Below are positions 13,661 through 39,005 of a DNA stretch of 39,411 bases, in pieces; within the stretch, counting starts at the first letter, position 1, and each line of letters starts with the position of its first letter. The notes beneath the pieces are model-generated. The model made no database searches and was not told the origin of the DNA. It was given only the letters and a program-made list of their open reading frames with translations. Position numbers and translations under genes: made by a program. Source of the DNA: a virus (lineage: Duplodnaviria; Caudoviricetes); the IMG/VR virus record IMGVR_UViG_3300025018_000279, positions 1 through 39,411 of that record. One strand, 5' to 3'.

Positions 13661-14259
13661 TCTCTGGCCCTGCTGTTGCCCGACAGCAGGCCGGGCCGAA
13701 GATCAGGGGCGGCGGTCAGCAGGCCGGGCCGAAGATCAGGGGCGGCGGTCAGCAGGCCGGGCCAAAGATCAGGGGCGGCGGTCAGCAGGCTGGAGGCCGC
13801 CCTGAATGTGCCCTTCAGCATCGACGACAGGCCCTGAGCCTTGGCCATGCGCTGCTCGGCCGTCAGTTCGCGCTGGCGGGCTGCACCGCCGGAACGGGTG
13901 GCCTGACTTTCGAAACTCATTTCCTGCGCCGCGGTCTGGCCCAGGGCGATTGCCGTCACGCTGTCCAGTTGCACGCCTCGCGCCGCCAGCTCGGCCCGCT
14001 GGGTGGCAATGGCCGAGGCAAATTTGGCACGCTGGCGCTGGTCCTGCACCGCGGTCAGTTGCGCCTCGGTGCGCTTTTGCTCCGCGATGGCCGCGACCTG
14101 CTGGTTGGCGGCCCGCATGCCGGCCGCGCCCTGCACCAGCGCGCCGCCAATGCTGACCAACGTGCCGATGGTCTGCAAGGTGCTGGCGGCCGCCACAGCA
14201 CCGGTGGCCGTTGCGGCGCCGCCCATGCCCAAAGCTCCGATGATGCCTAGAATGCACAT
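13657..14259 (-). CDS. Small internal virion protein, T7 gp14-like
   Basis: MC N-terminus, hydrophobic Gly/Ala segment, QRAELAARGVQLDS motif; follows tail tube B. Confidence 0.8.
   Translation of the reverse strand: MCILGIIGALGMGGAATATGAVAAASTLQTIGTLVSIGGALVQGAAGMRAANQQVAAIAEQKRTEAQLTAVQDQRQRAKFASAIATQRAELAARGVQLDSVTAIALGQTAAQEMSFESQATRSGGAARQRELTAEQRMAKAQGLSSMLKGTFRAASSLLTAAPDLWPGLLTAAPDLRPGLLTAAPDLRPGLLSGNSRARE
13684..13790. repeat. 33-bp tandem repeat, 3 copies plus 8 bp
   Basis: Unit CAGCAGGCCGGGCC(G/A)AAGATCAGGGGCGGCGGT at 13684, 13717 and 13750; encodes LLTAAPDL(W/R)PG. Confidence 0.95.
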
Positions 14260-23340: not shown

Positions 23341-25143
23341 TCAAATTCCTCCATAGGGGTTGAGAACATCAAAGCCGGTCATCAGCCGATCGTCAGGCTC
23401 TTGCGGTCGGCCCATCGCGGGACCGCCGCTCAGGCCCAGCAGGGCAGCCTTGCCCGCCGGGAAACTGATCTGGTTGATGCCGCTGCCCGCCAGGCTGCGC
23501 GACAGCAGCGCGTATTGCAGCGCATCCATCACGTTGGCCTCGGTCAGCCGCTTGTCGGGCACCTTGCGCTTGTCGCCCGAGGCGTCGATCTGGTCGGTCC
23601 AGACATAGCGTGCCTCAAAGCCCCGGATCAGGAAGCGGCACGATGGATCGATCTCCAGCCCCGGCTGGCCGCCGTGCATGAACTCCAGCGCCGCGCGCAC
23701 CGCCTCAAGCCGCGGCTGAATGCGGTTGGTGCCGATCTTCTGGGGTCGGATGCGAAACCCCACCGCCTGGCTGACCAGCTTGTTCCAGGTGGCGTTTTCA
23801 TTCGCCGCCTGACTGGCCCCCTGTTCGCCCGCCATGTCGGCAAAGCCACCGAAGATCGGCCAGTTGGGCCAGCGCCGTTCCAGAAGGTCAGCCAGCCGCC
23901 GCCCGAACTCGGCTGCCATCAGCCGCTCGTTCGGAAAGTGCAGCTCGGCCAGTGCCCGCCAGCGGAACGGCTCGACGAATTGCAGCACCACCGCCGCTCC
24001 CTTGAAACCCTGATCCAGCCCGATGGTCAGCGGCACCCCGCCGATCGGCACCAGGGTGGCCTCGGCGACATGGATGCGGCGGTTGAACTCGCGCCCGAAC
24101 ACCGGATCCCCCGCCCGCAGATAGACGATCTTGTTGAACACCAGCCGGTCGTTCATGTCGCCCCGGCCCGCCAAGCTGTTGGTGGCAATCTGGCGCGGGT
24201 AATAGCCCGGCGACAGGTTTTGCAGGTTCTCGCAGCCCGGCTGACCATAGCCCGGCTGGTTGTGAAAGCTGATGGCGATCTGCCGCGCCAGCGCCTGGCC
24301 CTTTTCCTTGGCAAGATCGGCCATGATCTGGTTCATCAGCCCGGCCATGCGGCTGCGCTCGGCGGCGTCATGGAACACCTTGAAGGTCCAGTTGTCCTCG
24401 TCGGGCGCATTGAAGTCGCAGACGATCTGGCCGTAACCCTGCTGCTCGGGCGCATAGCCGGCGAAATGCGCCAGCCCGGGCCAGCGGTCGATCCGCCCGA
24501 TGCCTGTGGTCAGCACATCGACCGGCACGGTGTCGGCCTCGTTCAACCACATGTCGGTGGTCTGGATGCCGCGCATCGAAGCCACGATGTCATCGCCGAA
24601 GGCCATGAACTCGGTGATGAACTCGATCGGTCCCTGGCCGTCATCGAATTCGATGGCGTGGCGCACCGGATCGCCGCGCCCGCCCGACCACTGCCCCAGC
24701 GCCTTGGGAAAGGTTTCCAAATAGCTCGGTATCGTGGTCGACCACAGTTGCCGGTAGGTCTCGCGCACCACCAAGAGCTTGTAGCGCCGCCAGCCGTCGA
24801 TGGTCGAGCGCGGCATCATCACCGCCCGGCGCAGCCGCGATTTCAGCAAGGTGGTGGTCTTGCCACTGCCAACCGGCCCCTGAATAGCGGCGATGTCGCT
24901 GTCATCCCAAAAGAAGGCTGCCGAGACCGGGCCGGGAAAAGTAAAGCTTTCCACATCCGGCATCTTGTCGGCGGCATTTTCCGCAGCTAGGGTCGCAACA
25001 GCTTCGGCCGCACCCATCGCGGCCAGCGCGTCAGCTTGCTCCTGACCACCCGCAACCGGCCCTGCCCCGCCCCGCATCGCGTCGGCGGGGGCAGAAAGCA
25101 TTCCCCCCTGACCCCAATGGCGATGGTTCCATTTCGCGGTCAT
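23341..25143 (-). CDS. terL: Terminase large subunit (start uncertain)
   Basis: Walker A GPVGSGKT, VVRETYRQL, Walker B WLNEA, coupling motif CDFNAP, nuclease GLDQG and DALQY. Confidence 0.93.
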   Translation of the reverse strand: MTAKWNHRHWGQGGMLSAPADAMRGGAGPVAGGQEQADALAAMGAAEAVATLAAENAADKMPDVESFTFPGPVSAAFFWDDSDIAAIQGPVGSGKTTTLLKSRLRRAVMMPRSTIDGWRRYKLLVVRETYRQLWSTTIPSYLETFPKALGQWSGGRGDPVRHAIEFDDGQGPIEFITEFMAFGDDIVASMRGIQTTDMWLNEADTVPVDVLTTGIGRIDRWPGLAHFAGYAPEQQGYGQIVCDFNAPDEDNWTFKVFHDAAERSRMAGLMNQIMADLAKEKGQALARQIAISFHNQPGYGQPGCENLQNLSPGYYPRQIATNSLAGRGDMNDRLVFNKIVYLRAGDPVFGREFNRRIHVAEATLVPIGGVPLTIGLDQGFKGAAVVLQFVEPFRWRALAELHFPNERLMAAEFGRRLADLLERRWPNWPIFGGFADMAGEQGASQAANENATWNKLVSQAVGFRIRPQKIGTNRIQPRLEAVRAALEFMHGGQPGLEIDPSCRFLIRGFEARYVWTDQIDASGDKRKVPDKRLTEANVMDALQYALLSRSLAGSGINQISFPAGKAALLGLSGGPAMGRPQEPDDRLMTGFDVLNPYGGI

Positions 25144-25373
25144 CCCCGAACCCGCCGACCTTCGGAATTCCCGAATGGGGTCACACGGAGGGGGAGTGAG
25201 ACTGGCCCGCGATGCCCCCCCCGGGGGGTCGAGGAGGCCGCGCGCGTCGTTGGCCCGGAAGGCAAAAAGGGGGGGGTGTTGCCTGCCAACACCAGTGCGA
25301 ACCCGCTGCGGCCGCCTTGCTGCGTCAGATTGGCAATCTGACGGTTGCCGCGTTTTTGTTCTTGGCTTTTCAA
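25140..25373 (-). CDS. Possible 77-aa bridging ORF between terS and terL
   Basis: TTGA overlap with terS stop and ATGA overlap with terL start, but the protein looks unstructured and overlaps cis-acting sites. Confidence 0.3.
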   Translation of the reverse strand: MKSQEQKRGNRQIANLTQQGGRSGFALVLAGNTPPFLPSGPTTRAASSTPRGGHRGPVSLPLRVTPFGNSEGRRVRG

Positions 25374-25441
25374 CGCCTTATTCCTTCCGTCCGAATTTCA
25401 GCGTCCGAATGCTCTTTGACCGCATCGGCAAGCCCTTGATT
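25323..25441. promoter_or_regulatory. att-like site: core-type palindrome, IHF-like boxes and TCGGACG repeats
   Basis: CGTCAGATTG-G-CAATCTGACG at 25323-25343; IHF-like TTTCAACGCCTTA at 25368-25380 and AATCAAGGGCTTG (minus) at 25429-25441; CGTCCGAAT at 25388 and 25402. Confidence 0.7.
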
Positions 25442-26041
25442 TCGCTGTATTTCATCCGGCATCGGCGGCGGCGCGATCCGCCGCGCCTGCGGCGTCACAT
25501 CGCGGGCACCGGCACCCGGCACGGCAGGTGCCGCGCCACCCGGCATGACGATCGTTACCGCTGACGTCACCGCCACGTCCGGCGTCAGCTTGGCCAGGCC
25601 GTAGGGCGCCAGCGCCTCGGCCGCGCGCAACTGGATGGTGTAAATCTGGATGAACAGCGCCGCCCGCTGTGCCGCGCTCGGCCCGCTGACCCGCACCACG
25701 CGCCCATCCATCATCTTGCGATACTCCGGCGCGCCGGTTTCCGCCGCCAGCACGATCCGCTCCATCGTCGCCAGGGCGGTGGTCACCGCATCATCGCGCG
25801 ATGACAGCCCCGCCATCTCGGCCAGCACGTCTTCAGGCATCTTGAAACCGCGATGTGCCAGCCAGTCGCGCAGCCGGTTGACCGCCTTGGCCTTGCCGCG
25901 CCGCCCGGTGCCCGGCCCGCCCGCGCCCTCGCCCGGCTCGTCCGGCAGCAGCGGCAGTTGCCGACCGGCGGCGCGCGACCTCTCGACCCGCGCCGCAGCC
26001 TCGGCGGCAAGCTCATCATACCGATTGTCGGGCTTTGCCAC
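25370..26041 (-). CDS. terS: Putative terminase small subunit (223 aa)
   Basis: Upstream of terL; GRRGKAK basic patch and LRAAEALAPY...KL motif; GTG start with AAGGGGG RBS. Confidence 0.7.
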   Translation of the reverse strand: MAKPDNRYDELAAEAAARVERSRAAGRQLPLLPDEPGEGAGGPGTGRRGKAKAVNRLRDWLAHRGFKMPEDVLAEMAGLSSRDDAVTTALATMERIVLAAETGAPEYRKMMDGRVVRVSGPSAAQRAALFIQIYTIQLRAAEALAPYGLAKLTPDVAVTSAVTIVMPGGAAPAVPGAGARDVTPQARRIAPPPMPDEIQRNQGLADAVKEHSDAEIRTEGIRR

Positions 26042-26059
26042 GTCAAATCCCCCCTTTTT

Positions 26060-26390
26060 CGAAGGTTTTCAACAACTTGCACGACCAAGGACCGGTGCCA
26101 ACGCCAGCCCCTACAGATTTTCCGGGCAACGTAGTGGCAAAATAGTGGGTTTGTAGGGGCTTTTTGTCTATATCTTTCAATAGGTTGTTATATACTACTA
26201 CACCCCTACGCCACATCTGGGCATACCCAAGCATGCGCACAGGTGCGCGCAGGCGCATGTGAGGGTGGGTATTTAGTTCTGTAGGGGCGTAGGGGGCTCT
26301 TATTATCCAGCCGAGCCAAGGGCTTACTCCACTACTTTGCAACGTAGGGGCCTTGTAGGGGCGTAGGGGGCTTGACTTTTCCAAAGTCAG
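26060..26390. other. Putative replication origin with GTAGGGG iterons
   Basis: 8 perfect GTAGGGG copies plus GTAGTGG variants in both orientations around an AT-rich patch; IHF-like boxes; right after the helicase gene. Confidence 0.75.
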
Positions 26391-26436
26391 TGTTTTCTGC
26401 CCCTGACCCAAATCTGCCAAGACGTCGCGCGTAATC

Positions 26437-26465
26437 ATTATCGGATCAAACGGGTGTGGGTGCAA
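26437..26465 (-). promoter_or_regulatory. Putative sigma70 promoter facing terS and the late genes
   Basis: TTGCAC-N17-GATAAT on the minus strand. Confidence 0.45.
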
Positions 26466-26527
26466 GCAAGAACGGGCGGCGGAATGGCCGTTGCAGATCA
26501 GTGCCTTAAACGCGCTCGTGGCGGGTA

Positions 26528-28567
26528 TCATGTATAATCCCCCTGATCATCGGGGGCGAACCGGGGGCTGGGTGCGGCGCTGCGCACCTCGTCGCCATCC
26601 AGCGCCATCAGGCCCGGCATGGCGCTGAAGGGCACATCCGTGCCGCGCGTCTGCACCCCTTGCAGATAGCGCGATGCAGCCGATGGTTTGGCTCCCGGCG
26701 CCCGCAAAAGCGACTGCGACCACGCCCCGCCAGCCCATTTCGACCCGATGAACACATCCTTCAGTCCCTGCACCTTCTGTGTGGCGACAAAAAGCACCGG
26801 CACCTCGCGTGTGCCAACCACCCGCAAGCCGATGCTGGCCAGCGAGACGTTGGCCCGCCGCGCCTGGTCATCGAGATGGTCCAGCGATGCCTCGCCAAAC
26901 AGCCGGTTGCCCGCCCCAGGGCGGCCCGCCGCGGCCTTCAGCCAGATCGCCACGGTAAAGCGCTCGCCGCGCCGGAACGGATCGAATTGCTGGCTCAAGA
27001 GATGCGTCAGCACTTCGTCATCGTCGCTCTGACCCTCTTTCGACAACGCCTTGAAGTGCCGCGCCAGCTTGGCCGTCCAGCCCGCCAGCTTGTCCTCGGA
27101 TGGCAGCTCCGCCGCCTCGGCCATGTCGGCCATGGCAATGGTGGTGGCCCAGTTGGCGGCGTCGCGCCCACTGATGCCATGCACCGCAAAAGCCTCGCGC
27201 CACATCTCGAGGCGCTGCGCCCAGGTCGGCCAGCGATCGATCAAAAGCCGCTTCAGGGCCGCGCCACGCTTGCGCCAGGTCTCGGCGCGCAGGTTTGGCG
27301 GCACTGCCCCGTCGCCGACCTTCTGCAGGCTCAGGACGATGATCCGCTGCAAATCCTGCGCCTGCAAGACGCCGGGGATCAGGATCGAGGACGCCATGAA
27401 GGTGCTGCGGATGATGGTCTCCGAAACCCCCTGCGCCGCATCCGACCGCAACCGCCGCCCGCCGGATGAGGCGATGCGGATCAGCTCGACAATCGCCTTT
27501 TCCTTGGGGCTGCCCTCGTCGGTGGCCTCAAGCTCGTCCAGCATCACCGGCAGGGTGGACATGCGCAAAAAGTTGGCAATCGACGCGGATGTTGCGTTTT
27601 CGGCCTTGATCTGGCCCTTGTCGCCGCCGTGCAACAGGCTGATCAGGGTATGCAGCAAGGACTTGCCAGCCCCAGCGCCACCCGTCACCCAGAACTGCGG
27701 CCGCCATTCCAATGCCCCGCCCAGCATCTGGCAGCCCAGCATGCCAAGCGCCAGCATGGCGTCGATCTCGGGCCGCTCCCAAGCCCACGTCTCCAGCGCC
27801 TCCATGATGTCGGGCACCGGGTCGGTGACCTTGCCGGTCATTATTGGGTGCGGGATCGGGCTGTAGGCCGGGTAAATCTTGCCCTGGTGCGCCTGCGTCG
27901 TGATCTCGGCCCCGGCAATCAGCAGCCGGTCGCCCAGGTGATAGATCAACTGGCCGTCATCATCGACCCAGGCCCCAACACCGCGCACCGCACCCTGCGG
28001 ATCGAAAATGCCGCAATCGGCACAGGCGGCAATCACGTCGGTGCTGCACTTGTCCTGGTCAAACCGGCCCGCCGTCGGGGTGTGCGACCCCTTGGCATAG
28101 GCCGGGTATTGGTGATGCAGCAAGTGCTGGCGGTTGCCAAACAGCGTCTTGATGGTCTGCAGATCAATCTTGGTCTCGGGCCGAAGCTGGCCGTGGATAT
28201 CCAGCAGGTATTGCACCTTGCCGTTGACCCCCAGCGCCTTGACCGGGCAGCCCTGCCAGATCTCGCCAAACGGGCGCGGCCGCGCCGATAACCGCCCCTT
28301 GCCGGGCACCGGCTCGGGTGCGCCCTCGGGCGGATCGAGGTCGCCCGGCGCATAGGGCGGTGCCTGATCGCGACCTGGTGCATCCGGGCCACCCACGACC
28401 GGCGGGTTGTTGAGCCGCGCCCCCAGCGCCTCCAGCGGGCGCAGCGACGTCACCTTGCCCCTGGCCTTGGGCGCGGGCTGGTCGGGTGCGGGAAACGCAT
28501 CCGGCATCCAGCTATCGTCAATCGGGTCGGTGCTCGGGCCTGGGGGCGGGGTGTCAGGCTGCGTCAT
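26528..28567 (-). CDS. Replicative helicase/initiator (P-loop ATPase) with a putative C-terminal origin-binding domain
   Basis: Walker A VTGGAGAGKS, Walker B VMLDELE, LIRIASSGG; downstream of primase and adjacent to the iterons. Confidence 0.85.
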   Translation of the reverse strand: MTQPDTPPPGPSTDPIDDSWMPDAFPAPDQPAPKARGKVTSLRPLEALGARLNNPPVVGGPDAPGRDQAPPYAPGDLDPPEGAPEPVPGKGRLSARPRPFGEIWQGCPVKALGVNGKVQYLLDIHGQLRPETKIDLQTIKTLFGNRQHLLHHQYPAYAKGSHTPTAGRFDQDKCSTDVIAACADCGIFDPQGAVRGVGAWVDDDGQLIYHLGDRLLIAGAEITTQAHQGKIYPAYSPIPHPIMTGKVTDPVPDIMEALETWAWERPEIDAMLALGMLGCQMLGGALEWRPQFWVTGGAGAGKSLLHTLISLLHGGDKGQIKAENATSASIANFLRMSTLPVMLDELEATDEGSPKEKAIVELIRIASSGGRRLRSDAAQGVSETIIRSTFMASSILIPGVLQAQDLQRIIVLSLQKVGDGAVPPNLRAETWRKRGAALKRLLIDRWPTWAQRLEMWREAFAVHGISGRDAANWATTIAMADMAEAAELPSEDKLAGWTAKLARHFKALSKEGQSDDDEVLTHLLSQQFDPFRRGERFTVAIWLKAAAGRPGAGNRLFGEASLDHLDDQARRANVSLASIGLRVVGTREVPVLFVATQKVQGLKDVFIGSKWAGGAWSQSLLRAPGAKPSAASRYLQGVQTRGTDVPFSAMPGLMALDGDEVRSAAPSPRFAPDDQGDYT

Positions 28568-28850
28568 GACGCGCCCCCACGTCTGCGCGAGGCGCGGCCT
28601 CGGGATGGCTCGGACCGTAGGCTTTCAGGGTCTGGGCGCGGTCGCCTCTGATCATGTGGCGGATCAGCGTCTGGGCGGCCTGCGCGCGGCCTGACTTGGC
28701 CGCAATGGTGCAATAGTGGTGCTGCAGATGCCACGCTGACCAGGGCGACACCGCATAGGCCACCGCCCGGCGCAACAGCGGCGGCAGGGCATCATAGGCC
28801 CGCAAGTCCTCGCTCCGCGTCACCAACTTATCGCCATAGCCGTTGCTCAT
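28554..28850 (-). CDS. Hypothetical protein resembling DUF6525
   Basis: AYDALPPLLRRAVAYAVSPWS motif; ATGA start at 28850. Confidence 0.7.
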   Translation of the reverse strand: MSNGYGDKLVTRSEDLRAYDALPPLLRRAVAYAVSPWSAWHLQHHYCTIAAKSGRAQAAQTLIRHMIRGDRAQTLKAYGPSHPEAAPRADVGARHDAA

Positions 28851-29026
28851 GCCGACACCCGCTTCTTGCAGGCAAACGCCACCCACAGGCCAGGATTTGC
28901 GGCCTGCAACACCGTCGCCATGCCGTACCCCGCCACCTTGCAGGTCTGCTCGCTCACCAGATAGCCGACCTGCGTCTGGCTGACCGGGCCGCCCATGGTC
29001 ATGATCAGGATCAAGGCCCAGTCCAT
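28847..29026 (-). CDS. 59-aa protein not in the ORF track (MDWALILIMTMGG...CKKRVSA)
   Basis: Translated by hand; TGATG overlap upstream and ATGA overlap downstream; hydrophobic N-terminus and two Cys. Confidence 0.75.
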   Translation of the reverse strand: MDWALILIMTMGGPVSQTQVGYLVSEQTCKVAGYGMATVLQAANPGLWVAFACKKRVSA

Positions 29027-29307
29027 CAGCGGGCCTCCCTGGCGTAAGCGGCCATGATCCCCGGTGGGATATTGAGGCCCAGAGAATTTAGCGGCGCGTA
29101 CGCATCACGCAGCCGCGCCCGCAATTTGCGCAGCCGGTCGCTTTCGTGATACTCGCCGCGGGCCCGAAGTATTTCGATGACATCACCCAGATCATCGGCT
29201 GTGAAGTGGGAGGCAAATAGCAGGTCAGCTATGCCTGACCGGCACGCGAAATCGTCGGCGCTGGTGGCACGCTCAAAGGCCCTGTTGATCCGTGGATCGT
29301 CCATCAC
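29026..29307 (-). CDS. Hypothetical protein (93 aa)
   Basis: Coupled to the primase stop and to the next ORF. Confidence 0.7.
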   Translation of the reverse strand: MMDDPRINRAFERATSADDFACRSGIADLLFASHFTADDLGDVIEILRARGEYHESDRLRKLRARLRDAYAPLNSLGLNIPPGIMAAYAREAR

Positions 29308-30458
29308 GCCGCCCCCTCCTGCTCGTCGCGCAGCAGCCGCTGCAGCCGGTCGTTCAGATCCTCGCCGGGCCGGTCCGATTGCCAGAGCCGCACCAGCCGC
29401 CCCGCCTTGGCATGGGCCGCCACCGCTTGCGCCAGCCCGGCCTGCGCCTGCGGATGCGCGTCGGCGTCACCGATCAGCACCACCTCGGCCACATTGGCGG
29501 GCAGCTCGACCAGCGCCATGTTGCTCAGCGATACCGCCGCCAGCACCCGCAGGTCAGGCCGCAACATCACCGCCGACAGGGCGGTTTCAATTCCCTCGGC
29601 GATGTAAACCCTGGTGCCGGGCGGGCAGGTCGCCAAAGGGCAGCCCTTGCCGCCCTTCGGCCCGGCCCCCGACCACAGCCGCACCGCGCCGCCGCGATAG
29701 TCGCCCAGCACCTTCTTGGCGTCGCGCAGCGCCGCCTTGGCCCACAGCCCGGTCGGCCCATAGGCCAGATAGGTGCGGTGGGTGGCGATGTGCTCGCCCT
29801 TGGCGTTGGTGATCGCCGTCACCATCGCGGGCAGATTGACCCGGCGCGGCGTCACCTCGCCGGTCTCGGGGTTGATCACCTCGTCGAGATACAGACAGTC
29901 GGGGTGATAGCGGATCGCCCGCGGTTGCCGCCCCAGCGGTGCCAGATCAAGGCCGCGGTTCGCCAGATACAGCGCCACCGGCGTGCCTGCGATCCGCTCT
30001 TGCGCCGACAGCCACAGCCCCCGCGCCGCCTTGCGCCGCCGCACTGCCTTTTCCGCCTGCGCCGCCACCTCGGCCACCCGCCGCTTTGCCGCCGCCTGCG
30101 CCGCCAGATTGCGCGCCCGGCGTAGCTCGGGGCTCTCGGTCTCCAGCCCCAGAAACGCCCGCGCCTCCCTGATCGTATCCGCCAGCGTGAGGCCCAGCGA
30201 CAGCGCGATCAGGTCGATCACATCGCCCTTTGCGCCGGTGGCAAAGTCGCACCACCGCCCCGCCATCGGCCCGGCCAGATGGATGCAGAAACTGCCGACC
30301 GACCGGTCAGCCCGGCCCGGATTGAGGGTGAAATACAGCCCGCCCTTGCGATAGCTGCCTTGCGCGGGCGGCGCATAGCGATCGACCACTGCGGGCAACT
30401 GGTCCAGCAAGCGCCCCTTGATCTCGTCCAGGCTGTAGGTCTGGCGGACCTCGGCCAT
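29304..30458 (-). CDS. DNA primase (Toprim domain; degenerate Zn-binding N-terminus)
   Basis: YLANRGL, HRTYL, KKVLG, IAEGIETALS, IGDAD, EDLND motifs. Confidence 0.92.
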   Translation of the reverse strand: MAEVRQTYSLDEIKGRLLDQLPAVVDRYAPPAQGSYRKGGLYFTLNPGRADRSVGSFCIHLAGPMAGRWCDFATGAKGDVIDLIALSLGLTLADTIREARAFLGLETESPELRRARNLAAQAAAKRRVAEVAAQAEKAVRRRKAARGLWLSAQERIAGTPVALYLANRGLDLAPLGRQPRAIRYHPDCLYLDEVINPETGEVTPRRVNLPAMVTAITNAKGEHIATHRTYLAYGPTGLWAKAALRDAKKVLGDYRGGAVRLWSGAGPKGGKGCPLATCPPGTRVYIAEGIETALSAVMLRPDLRVLAAVSLSNMALVELPANVAEVVLIGDADAHPQAQAGLAQAVAAHAKAGRLVRLWQSDRPGEDLNDRLQRLLRDEQEGAA

Positions 30459-30462
30459 CGCC

Positions 30463-31491
30463 CTATTCCGCTGCCGCTTGGGTCGGGAACAGCCGGGCCA
30501 GCCCCTCCTGCACCGCCGACCGGGTGAACCGCCGCGCCCACTTGTCATCGGCATCGCGGTGCAGCCCGGTCAGCAGATCGAACCGCGACTTGACCGCGCC
30601 CACATCAACCCCGAGGTCGGCCGAAATCTCGGTAAACTGCCAGCCCGTGCAGGCCAGATCGATCAGGTCGATATCCATCGCCGCAGTCCAGGGCGCGCCA
30701 TTACGCCGGATCGCCAGCAGATGCGCATCGAGGTCGGCGGTGAAGTTTTTGCCCGGTGCATTCGGGGCGAGCTCTTGCTGATGATCCGGCGGCGTCACCA
30801 CGGCCGCCACCTCAGGCGCTGGATCAGGGGTCGCAGCGCCGCCCGCCGCGATCGCGGCCGCCAGCTTGTGGCTCAACCGAAACCGCGTCGCGTCAAGCGG
30901 TCGCCCGACGATCTCGGCCACCTGAACTGCGGCTTGGTTCCGCGATATGCCACGCTCCATCAGCCGCACACATTCCGTAATCGCCAGGCGATCCTCCTGC
31001 TCGGTCCAGGGCTGTTGTCGGGTGTACCTCGGCACCTGCGGCGCGGGCTGATCGGCAGGGGCGACCGCCGCGACCTGCGCCACCGCTACCGGCTCCGGCT
31101 CCGGCTCGACCACAACGGGCGACGGAACCGGGGCTGCCACCTCAGCCCCGTCGCCCTGATCGACCAGCCCCGCTTCGGAAAGCGTCTGCCCGGGCTGGTC
31201 GGTTGCTACGGCGCCGCACAGACCGAGCTTTCGCGCCCAGTCCGTCAGCCGCGCAAGCTCGTCCTCATATCCCTCGGTCCCAGCATCCGGCCACCGGTGG
31301 CCAGGCGGCAGCGGCACTTCCGCCGGCAGCACGATGGCATTGAGGTGGATCACCGGTGCCCGCCCCGGCGTCAGATCGACCTTGGGCGCAAAACCGGCAT
31401 CCGACAGCAGTTCCATGACCCTGCTGATCGTCTGCAATTTGTCGCACAGCGCGTTCAGATCATCGCGATTAAGTTCATCAAGCACCAGCAT
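30463..31491 (-). CDS. Putative DNA-binding protein with two Myb/GcrA-like HTH repeats
   Basis: PWTEQEDRLA...VAEIVGRPLDATRFRL and PWTAAMDIDL...EISADLGVDVGAVKSRF. Confidence 0.7.
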   Translation of the reverse strand: MLVLDELNRDDLNALCDKLQTISRVMELLSDAGFAPKVDLTPGRAPVIHLNAIVLPAEVPLPPGHRWPDAGTEGYEDELARLTDWARKLGLCGAVATDQPGQTLSEAGLVDQGDGAEVAAPVPSPVVVEPEPEPVAVAQVAAVAPADQPAPQVPRYTRQQPWTEQEDRLAITECVRLMERGISRNQAAVQVAEIVGRPLDATRFRLSHKLAAAIAAGGAATPDPAPEVAAVVTPPDHQQELAPNAPGKNFTADLDAHLLAIRRNGAPWTAAMDIDLIDLACTGWQFTEISADLGVDVGAVKSRFDLLTGLHRDADDKWARRFTRSAVQEGLARLFPTQAAAE

Positions 31492-31855
31492 CGTCCCTGT
31501 CTCCCTCTGCAAGCCTGCGAAACGGTTCGGCGGCCGCAGCCCCGCGCCAATAGAAAAAATCGGCCAGCACGGCCCGGGCATCCAGCATCACCTTCACCCA
31601 GATCGCCGCACCGGCCGTGGTCCGGCTCGCAGGCTCGGCCGCCAGCACCGCCCATCCCGCCGCTTCCAGCTTCTGGAACAGCGGCACCGGCACCGGCTGA
31701 CACGCCGCCTGCACGTCGCGCAGATCGGCCATCATCAGCGGCCAGCGATCGTCGCGGATGACCTGGCAGGCCATGAAAGCCAGCACATTCACCAGCGCCG
31801 CATGGGCGCGCGGCATCGTGGCCGGCGTGGCGGCGGGGGCTGCGATCTCAGCCAT
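31478..31855 (-). CDS. Hypothetical protein (125 aa)
   Basis: GGAGG RBS before ATG 31855; overlaps neighbours. Confidence 0.75.
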   Translation of the reverse strand: MAEIAAPAATPATMPRAHAALVNVLAFMACQVIRDDRWPLMMADLRDVQAACQPVPVPLFQKLEAAGWAVLAAEPASRTTAGAAIWVKVMLDARAVLADFFYWRGAAAAEPFRRLAEGDRDDAGA

Positions 31856-32141
31856 CGATATCCCTCCGGAACCGGCGGGCGGGCGCATCCGGCCGCAATG
31901 ATACGTCCAGCGCCGCCTGCAAATTCTCGCCCAGCAGCCGCAGCGCATAGGCGTCGCGGTGCAGCGCCTGGTATTGCGTCGCAAACAGGATCACCGCCGA
32001 GCGCAGATCGTCGCCCGGCGCCAGCAGCTCCTCGGCCTTGCAGCGCATGTCATCAACCGCGAATTCTTCCAGCTCGCCACAGCGCGCCTGCATCGCCGCC
32101 GCGAAAACCGCAATCCGCACCACCACCGCCGGGTCACTCAT
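31848..32141 (-). CDS. Hypothetical protein (97 aa)
   Basis: ATG 32141 in an ATGA overlap; helical composition. Confidence 0.7.
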   Translation of the reverse strand: MSDPAVVVRIAVFAAAMQARCGELEEFAVDDMRCKAEELLAPGDDLRSAVILFATQYQALHRDAYALRLLGENLQAALDVSLRPDAPARRFRRDIDG

Positions 32142-32365
32142 CGCCAAATCCTGCGGGTGCGGCAAGAGGCCAGGGAGGCCACCCCTGCCGCACCCTTGGC
32201 CGCGCGGGCTTGCAACCACGCGACCGCCGCCGGGTTGCCTAACCCCGGACGGAACCGAATAGAAAAGGCGGAGATGCCAGCATGCACCTCCGCCAGGTGG
32301 GGGGATGGGGTCGATGCGGGAACCCACAGACCCGCAGACACGCCTGAACCCCCTGGAAACCTCAT
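32138..32365 (-). CDS. Hypothetical protein (75 aa, MRFPGGSG...)
   Basis: ATGA overlaps at both ends; GGAGG RBS inside the cro 3' end. Confidence 0.45.
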   Translation of the reverse strand: MRFPGGSGVSAGLWVPASTPSPHLAEVHAGISAFSIRFRPGLGNPAAVAWLQARAAKGAAGVASLASCRTRRIWR

Positions 32366-32673
32366 GCCGCTGCCTCCATCCGGCAACTGCTGAACGCCGC
32401 CACCGCCTGACGCTCGGCCAGAATGCGCGCCACCTCGGCCTCGGGCGCGCCCCAGATCAGATGATCGGCCACCAGCCCCAACTGCCGCGCCGCCGAATAG
32501 GCCAGCAACCGGCGCATTACCCAGGCCGACGGCAGGTCGCCCGCCCGCCGGTTCGAGTTGGCATGCCGCCAGTGATAGGCCGCCTTGCCCCGCTGACCCG
32601 CCGCCCGCGCGACCTGCTCGGGCTTTCCGATCAGCGCTTCGCATACCTGCATTGGGGTGAGGTTAGGTGACAT
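32362..32673 (-). CDS. cro: Cro-like repressor
   Basis: Divergent from cI; LIGKPEQVARAAG...AAYHW...GDLPS HTH pattern. Confidence 0.8.
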   Translation of the reverse strand: MSPNLTPMQVCEALIGKPEQVARAAGQRGKAAYHWRHANSNRRAGDLPSAWVMRRLLAYSAARQLGLVADHLIWGAPEAEVARILAERQAVAAFSSCRMEAAA

Positions 32674-32680
32674 GATACAG

Positions 32681-32733
32681 GATATAGATCGCAAATTTCC
32701 TTTCGCGCAAGGCATATTTTGCCAATTCGGCAC
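32681..32733 (-). promoter_or_regulatory. Lytic promoter with operator (immunity region)
   Basis: Minus strand: TGCC-N5-GGCAAAATATGCC abutting TTGCGC (-35), then CTATAT/TATATC (-10) just before the cro ATG. Confidence 0.7.
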
Positions 32734-32769
32734 ATTAAATACCGGGCCGAGGTGCTTATCTGTCGCACC

Positions 32770-33384
32770 ATGGATGACAAGTGGTTCAAACAGCAGCAAA
32801 AACTCGTCGGAAAAACCGCTGATCAGATCGCCGCCGTGCTTGGCCGGGATCGCTCTGTCGTCTCCAAAATACTGGCCGGAAAGCAGAAAATGACGCTGGA
32901 GTGGGCCACCGCCTTCGCTCAGGCGCTAGAAGTGCCGCTCGCCACCGTGCTGGAAAAGGCCGGGACCGCCGATTTGCCCGTGGCGCGCCAGATCGCACCG
33001 GGATTTGCCGAAAGCGATGCCGCCGTCTGGCTGCCGGGGCCGGGTCTGGCCGAGGCCGCTGTGGTGAAATCCGTCGCCGCCGCCCTTGGCGAACGCCCCG
33101 GCGTCGATGTCTGGCGGGTCAACGGCCCGTCGATGGCACTGGCCGGGCTGCTGACCGGCGATCTGATGCTGGTTGACAGCCACCAGGCCGAACGGGTGCG
33201 GGCTGGCGACGTGGTGATCGCCCAGGTTTACGGCCGCCACGCCAGCGCCAGCACCGTGCTGCGCCGGTTTGAACCACCGGTGCTGGTCGCCGCCAGCACC
33301 GACCCCGCCGACGCGCGGGTGCATGTCGTCGATGGCGAAAACGTGGTGATCCGCGGCAAGGTGGTCGCAAGCTGGAGGGTATGA
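32770..33384 (+). CDS. cI: CI-like repressor (XRE HTH plus S24 peptidase-like domain)
   Basis: TADQIAAVLGRDRSVVSKILAGK HTH; VNGPSM...GDLMLVD...GDVVIA...IRGKVV S24 pattern. Confidence 0.9.
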   Translation: MDDKWFKQQQKLVGKTADQIAAVLGRDRSVVSKILAGKQKMTLEWATAFAQALEVPLATVLEKAGTADLPVARQIAPGFAESDAAVWLPGPGLAEAAVVKSVAAALGERPGVDVWRVNGPSMALAGLLTGDLMLVDSHQAERVRAGDVVIAQVYGRHASASTVLRRFEPPVLVAASTDPADARVHVVDGENVVIRGKVVASWRV

Positions 33385-33644
33385 TGCTACGATGGGCAGA
33401 CCTCGAATTCTTGTTTATGTTCTTGTTCTTCGGGGGTATGTTCTTCGGCTTGGTTTTTCTGTTTTTTACGGCTGTCGTTGAGTTGTTTCACAATTCGATT
33501 GCGCGCGACGAGGCACTGAAAGACATCACCAGAAAGCCCGGCGAATTTATCTTCGCGCTTGCATGTGCCGTCTTTGGAGTTCTCCTGTTCGGTATGCTCT
33601 TCTTCTCATTGCTAGGATTTCACACATGGATACGCTTCTATTGA
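33381..33644 (+). CDS. Small Phe-rich membrane protein with 2 TM segments (moron; possible superinfection exclusion)
   Basis: ATGA-coupled to cI; two long hydrophobic segments; visibly lower GC than the genome. Confidence 0.75.
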   Translation: MMLRWADLEFLFMFLFFGGMFFGLVFLFFTAVVELFHNSIARDEALKDITRKPGEFIFALACAVFGVLLFGMLFFSLLGFHTWIRFY

Positions 33645-33661
33645 CCTAGTCGCGCCCGCTT

Positions 33662-33985
33662 GTGATCAACGCCTGCGCCATTGCGTTCGCCGTGATCGCT
33701 ACTGCCTCGCCCGCAGCGAACTTTTGCCGCGAACCATCGCAACCATATTGCCTTTCCAGCTTTACGACCTGGGACGATGGATATTCTTTCGAGGCATGCC
33801 GCCAGGCAATGGACAGCTACCTGGCAGAAGTTGCCGCTTTTTCACGATGCCTTGGGGATTGGGTCCAAGAAACCGCAGACGAGGCACAGCGCCTTAGCGA
33901 TGCTGCCGTTTCCAGATATCAGAACGCGGTGACTTACTGGAACTGCCAGGCAGCAGGCCCTGACAGCTATTGCGGATCACCATAA
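33662..33985 (+). CDS. Putative secreted Cys-rich protein (moron)
   Basis: Signal-peptide-like N-terminus (AIAFAVIATASPAA); 6 Cys in the mature part. Confidence 0.7.
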   Translation: MINACAIAFAVIATASPAANFCREPSQPYCLSSFTTWDDGYSFEACRQAMDSYLAEVAAFSRCLGDWVQETADEAQRLSDAAVSRYQNAVTYWNCQAAGPDSYCGSP

Positions 33986-33986
33986 T

Positions 33987-34047
33987 CGCAAAATTTGCCA
34001 TATCGGCATATTTTGCCTTGACAGTCACGGGGGCTAACCCTTAACTC
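33987..34047 (+). promoter_or_regulatory. Operator plus promoter of the xis-int operon
   Basis: CGCAAAATTTGCC-ATATC-GGCATATTTTGCC (34005-34017, identical to 32711-32723) directly followed by TTGACA at 34018-34023. Confidence 0.8.
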
Positions 34048-34078
34048 TTGTGCACAAAGCTTGCACAGGAGTAGCCCC

Positions 34079-34318
34079 ATGCCGCCGCTTGCCGTTCCCC
34101 TTGCCCGCCCCGCGCCGATCGATGACCGCGCCTTGGCCCTGCTGCGCCGTGTTGCCATCGACTGCCGCAGCGGCCTTTCGACCGAGGCCGAGGCCGAATG
34201 GCTGCTGGCAAGTTGCGGTGCCCTGCTTGACGAGCTGGCCCGCCGCCGCGCCGCCATGGCCACGCTCACCCCCGCCATGGATCTGAGCAACGTCGTCATC
34301 CTCGATGCGGTGCGGTAA
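34079..34318 (+). CDS. Hypothetical protein (79 aa)
   Basis: AGGAG RBS before ATG 34079; first gene after the operator; ends with an NVV-type tail. Confidence 0.75.
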   Translation: MPPLAVPLARPAPIDDRALALLRRVAIDCRSGLSTEAEAEWLLASCGALLDELARRRAAMATLTPAMDLSNVVILDAVR

Positions 34319-34863
34319 TGGAACTGTGGCGCGTCACCATCGAGACCAAGGTCACACGCCACGTCGATGTGCCCGCCGCCACCGCCGCGCAGGCCCGCGA
34401 CCGCGCCGGGCTGCGGCTGCGCGCCGGGGAACGGATGGCGTCGGCGGTGCCGCTTTCCGAACTGGTCGCCGATCCCGACGCGACCACCCTGCTGCGCCAC
34501 CTCTCCAGCCGCGCCTACCTCGATCACGACGGCCAGTCGCAACTGCTGCAAGACTGGCTGCTGCGCGCCCGTGATCCAAGCACCACCAGGATCGGCAACG
34601 AGGCCCTCGCCATGGCCGGGATGCGGGTGCTGGCCCCGGCGCTGCCGCCCGCGCCCTGGCTGGTCGCCGTGGTTCACCCCAGCCGCAATCACGTGCTGGC
34701 CGACTGGCTGCAAGGCACCTGCTGGGCCAGCCTCGATCTTTTCAAGGTGCTGACCACCCTGCCCGGTGCCACGCGCTCACGCTGCTCGCGCTACTTCGCC
34801 GGGGTGTAATCGCGCTACGTCGCCGTGCCCTTCGATCTGTTCGTCCCGCCCGAGGATTTGTGA
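34318..34863 (+). pseudogene. Paralog of the helicase C-terminal domain with an in-frame TAA at 34807-34809 (truncated 163-aa product, or readthrough)
   Basis: Aligns by eye with the helicase C-terminus; similarity continues past the stop (GV*SRYVAVPF vs GVQTRGTDVPF) to a TGA overlapping the next ATG. Confidence 0.7.
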
Positions 34864-35141
34864 TGGTCGGCCTGATCCTGCCTGGTGACCGCCCGATGAC
34901 CGAAGACGAACGGCGCGGCTTTCGCATCGCCTGCGCCTGCTTTGCCACCTGGGGCCGGATGTTGCACCACGAGGCGGTCAAGCTGGCAGGCCCGGCCCAG
35001 CCGGTGGCGGGCTCGGCCCTGGCCGAAACCGGCCACCGCATGGTGTTCATGGCCGAGGCGCTGGACCTCACTCTTGGCCGGGGTCGCATCCCGCTGCCCG
35101 AAGATACCGAATTTCCGCAGGCCGCGCTGGCCTGCCCCTGA
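34863..35141 (+). CDS. Hypothetical protein (92 aa)
   Basis: GAGGA RBS; TGATG start. Confidence 0.7.
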   Translation: MVGLILPGDRPMTEDERRGFRIACACFATWGRMLHHEAVKLAGPAQPVAGSALAETGHRMVFMAEALDLTLGRGRIPLPEDTEFPQAALACP

Positions 35142-35245
35142 CGTCGCTGGCCGGGGTCGCTTCGGGTGCGCTGCTCGCCACCCGCCCGGAAACCGCAACA
35201 GCCCGGCCGCAAGCGGCAGACCGGGCCAGCCCCAAGGGGTGCACC

Positions 35246-35425
35246 ATGATTTACTGGTTTCTTCTCGGCCTTGCGCTCGGCATCGCCAATGGCGCGGCCA
35301 TGCTGGCCCTCTGGTATCGCTGGCAGGCATTGGCCGATCGCGATGCCGCGCGCGACGACGATGAATTTGCCGCCTCGATGGCCGAATGGGGTTACATCGG
35401 CCTGCGCCGGGGCGGCTCCAAATGA
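35246..35425 (+). CDS. 59-aa single-TM protein not in the ORF track (MIYWFLLGLALG...RRGGSK)
   Basis: Translated by hand; AAGGGG RBS; ATGA overlap with xis. Confidence 0.75.
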   Translation: MIYWFLLGLALGIANGAAMLALWYRWQALADRDAARDDDEFAASMAEWGYIGLRRGGSK

Positions 35426-35715
35426 TCACCGCACCCGCATTCATGCCCTTCTTCCTGACCGCCGACCAGGTCGCGGCCTGCCTCGGCCTTGACGATGGCC
35501 GCGCCTTCCTGCGCCGCCGTCCGGCGCTGGAAGCCACCGCGCTGTTCCCGCTGGCGATGCCGCACAGCCGCCGCCCGCTTTTGTGGAAGGCCGACGAGGT
35601 GCTGGCCTGGATCACCCGCAACGGTGGCCCCGCCCCGGCGCACGATCCCGGCGTCGACCCGGCGCTGATCGCCTCGGGCAAGGTCGCCCTGCTGGAAATG
35701 GCGAGGACCATCTGA
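35422..35715 (+). CDS. xis: Excisionase / AlpA-like winged-helix protein
   Basis: FLTADQVAACLGL...FP...LLWKADEVLAW pattern; immediately upstream of int. Confidence 0.8.
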   Translation: MITAPAFMPFFLTADQVAACLGLDDGRAFLRRRPALEATALFPLAMPHSRRPLLWKADEVLAWITRNGGPAPAHDPGVDPALIASGKVALLEMARTI

Positions 35716-35716
35716 C

Positions 35717-36901
35717 ATGGCCCGCAAATCCACCGTGACCGGCCCCGTCGTCGATGCCGCCCCCGGCCTGCGCCAACGGCTGCGCAGCGACGGCACGTGG
35801 CGCATCTGGTGGGAGCCGACGCCCGCCATGCGCAAGGCCGGCGCGAAGGTGGTGGAATTTGCGGCCGATGCCCCCGGCCATGCCGTGCGGCAGGCCCGCG
35901 GCCTGCACGAAAAGTGGTGCGCGCTTTTGGCTCCCGCTGCCGGGGCGCAACCTGTTGCGAAAAAGCGGATGCCGACCGCCAGGACCATCACCGATCTGAT
36001 TGCCGACTATCGCGCCGCGCTCGACTTTACCCGCAAACCGGCCAGCACCCGCCGCGTCTATGACGCCGATCTGCGTGCCATTGCCGGCAAATGGGGGCCG
36101 CAGCCGGTGGCGCTGTTTGACAAGCCAACGCTGGCGCGCTGGTATGAAACGCTGCATGCCGCCAGGGGTGTCACCCGCTCGCGCGCCATCCTGCGGATGA
36201 TGTCGGTGCTGATGAGCCATGCCGAACTGCGCGGCTGGCGGCCGGAAAACTCCAACCCGTGCCGCGGCCTGCGCACCGAAACGCCGCTGGAACGCGAACG
36301 CACCGCCAGTTGGGCCGAGATCAACGCGCTGCTGGCCGCCGCCCGCCGCCTGCGCACCCGCGCCGTGCTGACCGCGCTGTATCTGGTGCTGCTGGGCGGG
36401 CAGCGGCAGTATGACATTCTGCGTGCCCGCCCGGGCGACTTTTATCCGCTGCAACTGCCCGGCGAAAACCGGCCGATATGGGTCTGGCAGCTTGTGCAAT
36501 CCAAGCGCAAACGCGCGATCGAGGTGGCGATCCACACCATCGCCGTGCCGACCCTGCGCACCCAACTGATGCGCGCCCCCGATGGCCCCGGCACGCTGAT
36601 CTGGGACGAGGCAACCGGCAAACCGTTCACGCCCGACAGTTTTTTTCGCGCCTGGGAAAAGGTGCGCCTGGCCGCCGTTGCCGCCGCACCCAGCATCGCC
36701 ACCCTGCAATGGCGCGATCTGCGCCGCACCTTCTCGAACCTGTCGCGCGCGGGCGGGTCCAGTGATGCCGATACCGGCGATGCCCTTGGCAACACCGCCG
36801 CGAAAAACCCCAAACTGCGCCGCACCTACATGGCCCCGCAGCTCGCCACCACCCTGCGCGCCGTCACCGCCATCGTCACCCCCAAACAAAGGAAAGCCTG
36901 A
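35717..36901 (+). CDS. int: Tyrosine recombinase (integrase) with non-canonical catalytic residues
   Basis: STRRVY core-binding domain, NPC, GQRQYDIL (R), QSKR (K), RDLRRT, LGN, RRTY (Y). Confidence 0.93.
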   Translation: MARKSTVTGPVVDAAPGLRQRLRSDGTWRIWWEPTPAMRKAGAKVVEFAADAPGHAVRQARGLHEKWCALLAPAAGAQPVAKKRMPTARTITDLIADYRAALDFTRKPASTRRVYDADLRAIAGKWGPQPVALFDKPTLARWYETLHAARGVTRSRAILRMMSVLMSHAELRGWRPENSNPCRGLRTETPLERERTASWAEINALLAAARRLRTRAVLTALYLVLLGGQRQYDILRARPGDFYPLQLPGENRPIWVWQLVQSKRKRAIEVAIHTIAVPTLRTQLMRAPDGPGTLIWDEATGKPFTPDSFFRAWEKVRLAAVAAAPSIATLQWRDLRRTFSNLSRAGGSSDADTGDALGNTAAKNPKLRRTYMAPQLATTLRAVTAIVTPKQRKA

Positions 36902-37161
36902 TGATCACTTTTCGCGTGGCCTTTTGCCACGAAGGCATGTTCTGGAACGCCTATCTGGCGCAGCCCGATACCATGAAGGACGCCGTTCTGATCGGCTCCA
37001 TCGTCATGAGGGCAGTCGCCATCAACCCGGAGTGCCGGGCCGCTTTCGTGTCTGCGATGCGCGGCGTCATGGAGACGGCGAGTGCTGATTTGGGCGTGCC
37101 GATTGACGGCTGGAATGACCCCGTGTCCTGTCCGGAACACGAAAAGGCCAGCCGCGCATGA
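36901..37161 (+). CDS. Hypothetical protein (86 aa)
   Basis: Start overlaps the int stop; AAGGA RBS. Confidence 0.75.
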   Translation: MITFRVAFCHEGMFWNAYLAQPDTMKDAVLIGSIVMRAVAINPECRAAFVSAMRGVMETASADLGVPIDGWNDPVSCPEHEKASRA

Positions 37162-37391
37162 CCGCCCCCGCCCTGCAAATCCGGGGCTGCGGCACCAGTT
37201 GGTCGATCCTGGCTGACGGCGTGCCGCTGCCCACCCGCTACCATGGCCACCACCTCGCCACCGCCGCCCTGCGCGGCGTGCAACAGCGGCTCACCCCGCT
37301 GGTGCCGCGCCAATGCCTGCGCTGCACCACCCCATTCCCAAGCACCGGCAAAGGCAACCGCCTGTGCCGGGCATGCCAAAAGGATATCTGA
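37158..37391 (+). CDS. Small protein with a C-terminal C4 zinc finger
   Basis: CLRC...F.S.G.GNRLCRAC; ATGA-coupled. Confidence 0.8.
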   Translation: MTAPALQIRGCGTSWSILADGVPLPTRYHGHHLATAALRGVQQRLTPLVPRQCLRCTTPFPSTGKGNRLCRACQKDI

Positions 37392-37437
37392 TCCCGGTGC
37401 CGGGGAACATCGGCACGCCTCCCCGCTGCCTAAACTT

Positions 37438-37467
37438 GCCCCGACGCACCCGCGGCGGGGCTTTTTT
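37438..37467 (+). terminator. Rho-independent terminator of the int operon
   Basis: GCCCCGACGC-ACCC-GCGGCGGGGC followed by TTTTTT. Confidence 0.85.
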
Positions 37468-37474
37468 CGTGCAA

Positions 37475-37663
37475 GCGTCCGAGCGGCCGAATTCGGACAA
37501 CTCGGACGCTCGGACGGCATAACAGCCAAGTGTTTGAAAAATGGTGCACCCGGAGCGATTCGAACGCCCGGCCCTCAGATTCGTAGTCTGATCAGGTTCT
37601 TTGCATTTCAATGACTTAGATTAATCTATGTCATATCTTAACCCGATATATTGCAATGGGTTG
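37475..37663. promoter_or_regulatory. attP region with arm-type repeats and IHF-like sites
   Basis: TCGGAC repeats at 37475 (inverted), 37491, 37501, 37509; IHF-like boxes at 37527-37539 (minus), 37606-37618 and 37651-37663. Confidence 0.8.
37542..37592 (-). other. attP core: 3' half of tRNA-Arg(ACG), not a complete tRNA
   Basis: Minus strand ATCAGA-CTACGAA-TCTGA-GGGCC-GGGCG-TTCGAAT-CGCTC-CGGGTGC-ACCA gives anticodon arm, T arm, acceptor 3' strand and CCA; no D arm or 5' strand. Confidence 0.93.
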
Positions 37664-37685
37664 CAAAGGCTGCTTTGCTGGCAGG

Positions 37686-37946
37686 CTACTTTCCAATCGC
37701 CCGCCGCAAGTCATTGTCGCGCTGCACCAGCACGGCCTTTTCGGCCCCGCACTCGTTCAGTTCATCACCCAGCCGACCGGCCATGATCTCCCAGTCACGC
37801 ACGCCCAGAAAGGTTTCGGCCCGTGGGCACGGGGCTGTGATACTGGCATCAGGGGCCGGGATTTGTTGCCCGCCAACGGGTTTCAAGCCGCCGCAGGCTG
37901 CCAGCGGCAGGCACACGACAAGGATCAACATCGGCACGCGCTTCAT
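37686..37946 (-). CDS. o-spanin (Rz1-like lipoprotein)
   Basis: MKRVPMLILVVCLPLAAC lipobox; Pro-rich with two further Cys; overlaps the i-spanin in another frame; GGAGG RBS. Confidence 0.85.
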   Translation of the reverse strand: MKRVPMLILVVCLPLAACGGLKPVGGQQIPAPDASITAPCPRAETFLGVRDWEIMAGRLGDELNECGAEKAVLVQRDNDLRRAIGK

Positions 37947-38166
37947 CTTCGGCCCTCCTGGCAAGCGCGGCCTGGTCCGCGCGATAGGTCTCAAGCTTTG
38001 CACTGGCGGCCGATGCCAACTCGGCCGCGCGAAACAGATCGCGCTGCAGCGCCTGCTGGGCAGCCACATATCGCGCCTCGGTCGCCGCGACCCCACCATG
38101 CCGACCGTAGGCGTACGACCCCGACAGCAGCGCCACGGCGGCCAGAATGACCCATGGCGACGGCAT
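37849..38166 (-). CDS. i-spanin (Rz-like)
   Basis: N-terminal TM helix followed by coiled coil; follows the endolysin (TGATG). Confidence 0.8.
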   Translation of the reverse strand: MPSPWVILAAVALLSGSYAYGRHGGVAATEARYVAAQQALQRDLFRAAELASAASAKLETYRADQAALARRAEDEARADVDPCRVPAAGSLRRLETRWRATNPGP

Positions 38167-38780: not shown

Positions 38781-38986
38781 TTTTTATCTCCTGACTGTTT
38801 CGTCCATGCGTCAAAGCCGAAAGCCGCACCGACGACGGCGAAAGTCGGCAGCAGCAGGGCGTTGGCCGCCAGCGTTGCCTGTGGCGCGATCACCCCCCAG
38901 CCGTAAAACCCCCACAGCACGAACAGGGCGAGCGTCGCCAACTCGCGCTTGTAGGTTTTTTCGGGTTTTGGTGGGGTATCGGTCAT
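38777..38986 (-). CDS. Putative holin (69 aa, 2 TM)
   Basis: Two hydrophobic segments and charged termini; ATGA-coupled to the endolysin. Confidence 0.7.
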   Translation of the reverse strand: MTDTPPKPEKTYKRELATLALFVLWGFYGWGVIAPQATLAANALLLPTFAVVGAAFGFDAWTKQSGDKK

Positions 38987-39005
38987 TGGTGATGGCCCTC
39001 TTTCC

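Follow-up and report, generated by a model that had tools for sequence, protein, structure and literature searches.

Organisation of the window genome

The window, that is, the whole stretch of 39,411 nucleotides analysed here, is a complete circular genome of 39 kb whose first 163 bases recur at its end. It belongs to a temperate podophage, relatives of which sit in the genomes of Rhodobacteraceae, the named hosts of its close relatives. According to PHROG and Pfam matches, the terminase, portal, capsid, tail and lysis genes are on the minus strand and presumably make this a podophage of the BPP-1/epsilon15 kind. The early region encodes a primase, a helicase, a CI-like repressor and a tyrosine integrase. 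No cultured phage close in terL, int, portal or primase was found; the best cultured TerL match had 32% identity and the integrase had no cultured match. The genes and the likely origin are as follows.

23341..25143, minus strand: terminase large subunit gene, terL (phrog_2, E 3e-14; weak Terminase_3 match)
25370..26041, minus strand: terS-like gene, assigned by position only, whose C-terminal codons carry the arm of the site named J below
26108..26369: likely iteron origin, eight GTAGGGG repeats with IHF-like boxes close by
26528..28567, minus strand: primase/helicase-type replication protein gene (phrog_35358)
29304..30554, minus strand: Toprim primase gene (family matches)
32770..33384, plus strand: CI-like repressor gene (HTH and S24; family matches)
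35422..35715, plus strand: small gene directly before int, kept in relatives; an excisionase gene by position only
35717..36901, plus strand: tyrosine integrase gene, lambda Int-like, with an N-terminal three-stranded domain (phrog_1; model pLDDT 89)

PHROG, Pfam, fold and atlas comparisons gave no assignment for the terS-like protein, and none of its 208 relatives at E<=0.001 carries a name. The frame before int (35386-35715) had no family match. The likely origin lies between the helicase and terS, about 0.8 kb from J; an intergenic stretch was obtained at this place in 18 of 20 relatives, most of them with a different 7-mer repeated 7-12 times, and the origin repeat may co-vary with the initiator. 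Rfam returned nothing of note over 24900-39411, and ARAGORN called no whole tRNA in the window. Elsewhere, similar repeats of the GGCA-TATT-TTGCC type on either side of the repressor region (32690-32740 and 33985-34020) are likely operators, a large virion-module gene (8319-11510, minus strand) has a ddrB-like ParB domain and N-terminal tandem repeats (11277-11432), a small internal virion gene contains three 33-bp tandem repeats (13684-13793), and a tail-region gene (1500-3566, minus strand) with carboxylesterase and weak carbohydrate-binding domains possibly encodes a receptor-modifying spike.

A lambda-type integrase and its attachment site

The best match of the integrase by sequence and fold in the PDB was full-length lambda Int, over 376 aligned columns, and the comparison of sequence and predicted structure found the tyrosine recombinase fold together with an N-terminal arm-binding domain. 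Tyrosine recombinases usually have the catalytic set R-K-H-R-H/W-Y. Here R230, K263, R336 and Y371 are conserved, and R333 and N359 occupy the two His-type positions; in place of the usual His-containing motifs the family carries RDLRR and LGN, which are invariant in 25 aligned members. Downstream of int lies the attachment site.

37477..37539, plus strand: attP left arm, with an inverted GTCCGA, three TCGGAC and an IHF-like box
37542..37591, minus strand: 3' part of a tRNA-Arg(ACG) gene from the anticodon arm, including the attP core (37575-37591)
37606..37663, plus strand: attP right arm, with IHF-like boxes at 37606 and 37651

With a core containing a 7-bp spacer, arm repeats and IHF boxes, this att has what a lambda-type site requires. 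The left arm had been described from the window alone as TCGGAC repeats, an IHF-like box and a core, and all were found at 37477-37539 and 37575, the repeats starting at 37493, 37502 and 37510 and the inverted copy at 37477. The right arm had been described as free of TCGGAC, which is true of the window, but four relatives in circular form (L078, L084, L094 and L250) have one copy or its reverse. The att spacer is identical to that of a tRNA-Arg acg called by ARAGORN in the relative L161, and contigs from two sequencing runs pass at 37592 into the 5' half of a tRNA. In run X2, loose ends at 37542-37589 point to other elements in that sample that use the same tRNA-Arg core with different arms.

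A second core-type site between terS and terL

Between terS and terL lies a second site, which we named J, with the following parts.

25175..25276, minus strand: stretch separating J from terL, with a C-run, a CnGn palindrome (25216-25228) and a conserved GACCCCAT-type motif
25323..25343: 21-bp palindrome containing the J core (25325-25341), inverted half-sites TCAGA/TCTGA around a 7-bp spacer
25368..25380, plus strand: IHF-like box on the side of the core, which overlaps the stop codon of the terS-like gene; its position is conserved in the family consensus
25388..25410, minus strand: two TCGGAC arm-type repeats, the proximal one 47 bp from the core
25429..25441, minus strand: distal IHF box, a perfect WATCAA-N4-TTR, of which the window has just one other copy

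The J core, TCAGA-TTGGCAA-TCTGA, is identical to the att core, TCAGA-TTCGTAG-TCTGA, at 14 of 17 positions, and the window holds no other TCAGA-N7-TCTGA site even with one mismatch allowed. Across 300 dinucleotide shuffles, the exact core turned up at a rate of 0.017 per genome, and two TCGGAC spaced 6-10 bp apart at a rate of 0.027. The original prediction of a palindromic att-type core at the terS/terL junction was thus confirmed, as were the positions of both IHF boxes and of the repeats, which read CGTCCGAAT at 25388 and 25402. The arm does lie mostly within the C-terminal codons of terS, the terS-like ORF ending at 25370. By its position, the stretch with the C-run, CnGn and GACCCCAT-type motif is a candidate packaging signal.

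Conservation of J in the phage family

Related loci were collected in three overlapping sets, comprising 70 viral loci found via TerL, 80 genome loci via a primase alignment and 52 viral loci via an integrase alignment; a pattern-seeded search from a single integrase had given no loci, and the integrase alignment found them. Read on the terL strand, the family J consists of an IHF box, about 22 bp, TCGGAC-N8-TCGGAC, a reverse IHF box, 26 bp and a core of the form xxxGA-T-N5-A-TCxxx. The stretch 3' of it is variable and contains C-runs, CnGn and a GACCCCAT-type motif, the distance from core to CnGn being highly variable among relatives.

A strict search recovered J in 102 of the 117 loci that hold the terS end, and the remaining 15 have the same layout by eye. 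Within the search range of 42-53 bp, the distance from arm to core was 47 bp in 102 of 112 hits, 46 bp in eight and 42 bp in two; L048 and L051, which fall outside that range, have 58 bp, one helical turn more. At att this distance is roughly three turns or one turn longer than at J and more loosely kept (75-81 bp in 50 of 68 undeduplicated arms, 59 bp in the window). A relative of the integrase is encoded in 37 of the 40 records searched, including all 28 near-complete ones, as a single match in 36 of the 37; the other, G034, has a split one.

In distant relatives the arm motif differs, yet it is common to J and att in L185 (TTGGAAGGG) and L200 (TCTAAC), the only two such relatives in which both sites are visible. 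Four Sphingomonadales loci (L179, L182, L185 and L189) have the arm pair upstream of a terS-like gene, so that the J arm is not tied to terS coding; C/G runs adjoin the pair in L179 and L182, and the core is clear in L179 only. A motif scan detected the module in further distant phages, but the records, including the group G042-G045, end before the att core and were left out of the co-variation set. BcepC6B lacks an IHF-arm-core module at terS/terL, and its att region shares no telling repeat with that junction; MT835534 has no clear J module. Two other elements came up among these loci. L164 and L177 are one prophage at both ends of a single Sulfitobacter profundi contig, probably an assembly overlap, and L193 contains a 12-kb element with a primase and a distant terL between two tRNA-Lys 3' copies (7443 and 19526), the first preceded by a CnGn run, in a layout unlike that of the window's family.

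The half-sites of J follow those of the phage's own att

Both J and att could be parsed in 51 records, of which 41 were kept after dropping integrases more than 95% identical; the J finder made no use of the att sequence. The 41 phages target eight tRNA types, namely Thr, Asn, Lys (two), Arg (two), His and Leu, as called by ARAGORN except for Leu, which is our own reading. The left half-sites of J and of the phage's own att agreed at 192 of 205 bases (shuffle mean 157.6) and the right half-sites at 177 of 205 (shuffle mean 147.0), with p<1e-4 in both cases. Agreement extended to the six bases upstream (129 of 246; shuffle mean 110.0; p<1e-4), and the half-site result held at integrase identity thresholds of 80% and 65%. 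When the sites were sorted into classes, J and att were concordant in 39 of 41 phages, and among the CTGA types the outer base agreed in 26 of 27. Even between two phages that both target tRNA-Arg(ACG), J follows att where the outer pair differs, being T/A in the window and C/G in L161.

On FastTree phylogenies the J class changes six times on the integrase tree, compared with ten on the terS tree (without L161), nine on the helicase tree and eleven on the terL tree (without L153 and L239). Independent pairs agreed in 7 of 7 cases on the terL tree (p=0.016); on the other trees, that of the integrase included, they agreed in 3/3, 1/1 and 3/3, too few for significance, with none against. Among the rows that the parser could not read, L151, L156 and G025 agree by eye and L173 has one change. 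One true exception, L162, was missed by the parser and seen by eye, with ATTGA/TCAAT at att and ACTGA/TCAGC at J. The original prediction had named co-variation of the palindrome with the stem of the target tRNA as the way to check it, and this check is passed strongly. From the agreement of the half-sites it is most likely that the same integrase recognises both J and att, as had been proposed.

Spacers and rearranged forms

The spacers behave differently from the half-sites. Those of J and att agreed at 168 of 287 bases, compared with 166.5 in shuffled pairs, so that there is no co-variation, and the two were identical in none of the 41 phages, in either direction, which makes an exchange between J and att unlikely. 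The first T is nevertheless common to both in 40 of 41. Among 82 distinct J sites the spacer is fully self-complementary only in the window's own and asymmetric in the other 81; 40 pair at one of three positions and 41 at two. The commonest spacer, TTGAAAA (27 of 82), presumably resembles a tRNA-Phe loop, and J spacers loosely resemble Thr and Lys att spacers, at 4-6 of 7 positions in the Thr phages. The idea that J is an attachment site for another tRNA was rejected, as many spacers cannot be tRNA loops, no tRNA half is present and J is never joined to host DNA.

J was followed by terL at 104 of 112 sites, the other eight reaching the end of the fetched sequence, and a terL flank was found after none of 68 att cores; one att core with a C/G run after it turned out to belong to host DNA. 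In four runs no joint linked 25333 to 37583. Contigs run through J in five of six runs without any strand-changing joint; those of run X6 leave a gap at the core. The fold-back and inverted joints that a telomere or an inversion at J had been expected to give did not appear in the Logan contigs, nor did J-att joints or end pile-ups, although such contigs cannot show absence.

Possible functions of J

What the sequences show directly is the anatomy of J and its fixed spacing, half-sites and an arm motif that co-vary with those of att, and a spacer that does not match the att spacer. As the half-sites match the phage's own tRNA target and the centre differs, the integrase likely has a second job at J. 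We see an even chance that this job is recombination of J with J, which would circularise terminally redundant DNA or make multimers. The integrase and IHF would build on J a complex like that of lambda attL, which according to an excerpt of PMC4880445 has two arm sites, one IHF and one core; J would likewise offer two arm sites, one bend and one core. Since exchange needs matching spacers, as in the spacer checking of lambda-type integrases, J would pair only with another J. Two copies could come from the terminal repeats of headful-packaged DNA, as in P22, where pac lies inside terS and about 105% of the genome is packaged (excerpt of PMC8575938), or could be sisters present just after the nearby origin fires. 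A crossover would then close the linear genome, much as two lox sites serve to close the DNA packaged by P1 (PMC2841073, in part), or join sister circles into multimers for the terminase, work given to Erf, Red or Cre in other phages. A broader version, in which the integrase is also a lytic-cycle enzyme that, at a dedicated site between origin and packaging signal, fuses sister circles for the terminase and closes injected DNA, replacing rolling-circle replication and Erf/Red-type recombinases throughout this family of alphaproteobacterial phages, is tentative and on the doubtful side.

Several observations bear on J x J recombination, which would not itself be visible in assemblies because it leaves no new junction. 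Erf, RecT, Rad52/Sak and AAA_24/Sak4 gave no match in 29 genomes, the controls being detected; this is weak support, because such absence is common and host RecA could circularise the DNA. The contig over J was deeper than both neighbours in five of six runs (49.7 versus 30.9 and 25.4 in X2), a weak hint, as Logan contig depth is not copy number and the runs are perhaps from one campaign, two of them perhaps from the same sample as the window. Identity steps near the J core in three of nine close pairs are a similarly weak hint. Of 34 upstream contig edges, 11 lie at -410 to +166 of the terL start, downstream of J, a cluster that fits a packaging cut there or a plain sequencing failure at G-runs; if the cut were made at the CnGn motif 3' of the core, the first headful would not have J at both ends. 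Against J x J recombination count the L162 exception, the clear core in only one Sphingomonadales locus (L179) and the J spacers, which are more alike across phages than homotypic exchange requires.

The evidence of half-sites, arms and co-variation would apply equally to the main rival, a regulatory role in which a non-catalytic integrase-IHF wrap of J blocks or licenses terminase access or transcription into terL and ties packaging to excision status. J abuts the CnGn motif and sits between terS and terL, the genome has no partner of matching spacer, the arm pair is kept where the core is unclear (L182, L185 and L189), and P22 does package in situ from a pac site within terS (excerpt of PMC8575938). 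We consider the regulatory role unlikely, however, because conservation covers both half-sites and the exact 7-bp length of the spacer, and the arm-distal half co-varies too (177/205), beyond the need of high-affinity arm binding, the distance from core to CnGn is highly variable, and no sigma-70-type promoter was found at J. An exchange of J with att despite the mismatched spacers, giving a transient inversion (for example a Flp-like fork flipping near the origin that leads to concatemers) or excision of the 12-kb early module, is quite improbable. Some integrases, such as those of the Tn1549 type, tolerate spacer mismatch, and the Tn1549 integrase is a weaker fold match to that of the window; moreover, J looks like an inverted att left arm, is close to the likely origin and shares the first T of the spacer. 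But the spacers are no more alike than shuffled ones, terL follows 104 of the 104 J sites with readable flanks and none of the att cores, the joint expected between 25333 and 37583 was not found in the four runs, and an inversion should leave both isomers among the circular genomes, where none was seen. Thus, among the other roles that the original prediction had listed, multimer resolution and integrase occupancy stand, whereas inversion is disfavoured.

That J is a cos- or pac-like signal read by TerS and IHF, with only an incidental likeness to att, is very unlikely. A site with repeats and IHF boxes at the terS/terL junction does recall lambda cosB, which has repeats and IHF boxes beside the terminase genes, but the same repeats make up the att arm, the arm motif changes jointly at J and att, and the core tracks the tRNA target and the integrase tree, not the terS or terL tree. 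The hairpin telomere of the original prediction, for which the integrase would cleave J and fold back the overhangs like a protelomerase, was suggested by the perfect 21-bp palindrome of the window, which folds as a hairpin (z -2.9). With a self-complementary spacer in only one of 82 sites the idea fails, and it is hardly credible given the contigs running through J, the relatives being integrated prophages, and an enzyme that folds like lambda integrase, with no telomere resolvase among the fold matches listed. We give as little credence to J being a remnant of an ancient att duplication that linkage has preserved; the loose likeness of J spacers to Thr and Lys att spacers would suit it, but the 47-bp geometry is fixed though the terS proteins share only about 45% identity, and matching changes with att have occurred repeatedly.

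The textbook view gives a lambda-type integrase a single task, carried out at one set of att sites. Throughout this phage family, the packaging genes carry a second, co-evolving site that most likely serves the same integrase, which would limit the enzyme's freedom to change tRNA targets. Should J x J recombination take place, it would explain circularisation and the packaging substrate in a phage without an annealing recombinase, would be the natural counterpart of the lambda attL x attL reaction, and would provide a ready set of natural specificity variants of enzyme, att and J with which to study or engineer core recognition.

Comparison with known systems

A search of openly available full text found no earlier description of such a second integrase site. 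We conclude that J is real, family-wide and apparently undescribed, although a prior description is possible. With lambda Int and attL it shares a heterobivalent tyrosine integrase, a 7-bp spacer between inverted core sites and an IHF box between core and arm repeats. The difference from lambda is that J stands apart from att as a natural site, 12 kb away at the packaging genes and with a spacer of its own; we know of no second site of the J kind in lambda, whose bent-L pathway is a laboratory reaction. J has the parts of the lambda attL complex (IHF H' and arm sites P'1 and P'2; excerpt of PMC4880445), and a reference title in PMC1807965 gives attL x attL 'bent-L' as a lambda pathway. The identical spacers needed by lambda-type partners are lacking between J and att in all 41 phages and trivially present between J and J.

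The BPP-1/BcepC6B/epsilon15-type podophages have related portal and tail genes, and TerL is about 29% identical to that of BcepC6B; they differ in terS and the replication genes, and BcepC6B in its lack of the module. N15-type TelN/telRL has in common with the window, and with this one genome only, a palindromic site between early and late genes; it differs in that the spacer of the J family is not self-complementary, the enzyme is lambda-like in fold and the prophages are integrated, at tRNA genes.

Cre/loxP of P1 closes linear packaged DNA at two copies of one site (PMC2841073, in part). It also resolves multimers, and the role proposed for J is of the same kind. An asymmetric spacer between inverted half-sites, as in loxP, is present in 81 of 82 J sites. 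Cre, however, is a dedicated monovalent recombinase with no arm domain or arm sites, no need of IHF and no integration at tRNA genes, whereas here one integrase, with an arm domain and IHF boxes at its sites, would serve both att and J. XerCD at cer or psi acts on a core with one-sided accessory sequences in a homotypic recombination, as J x J would be, and differs in its use of host recombinases with PepA and ArgR or ArcA instead of a phage integrase and IHF. J x J recombination would thus combine the mode of action of Cre/loxP or cer with components of the lambda type, without belonging to either system.
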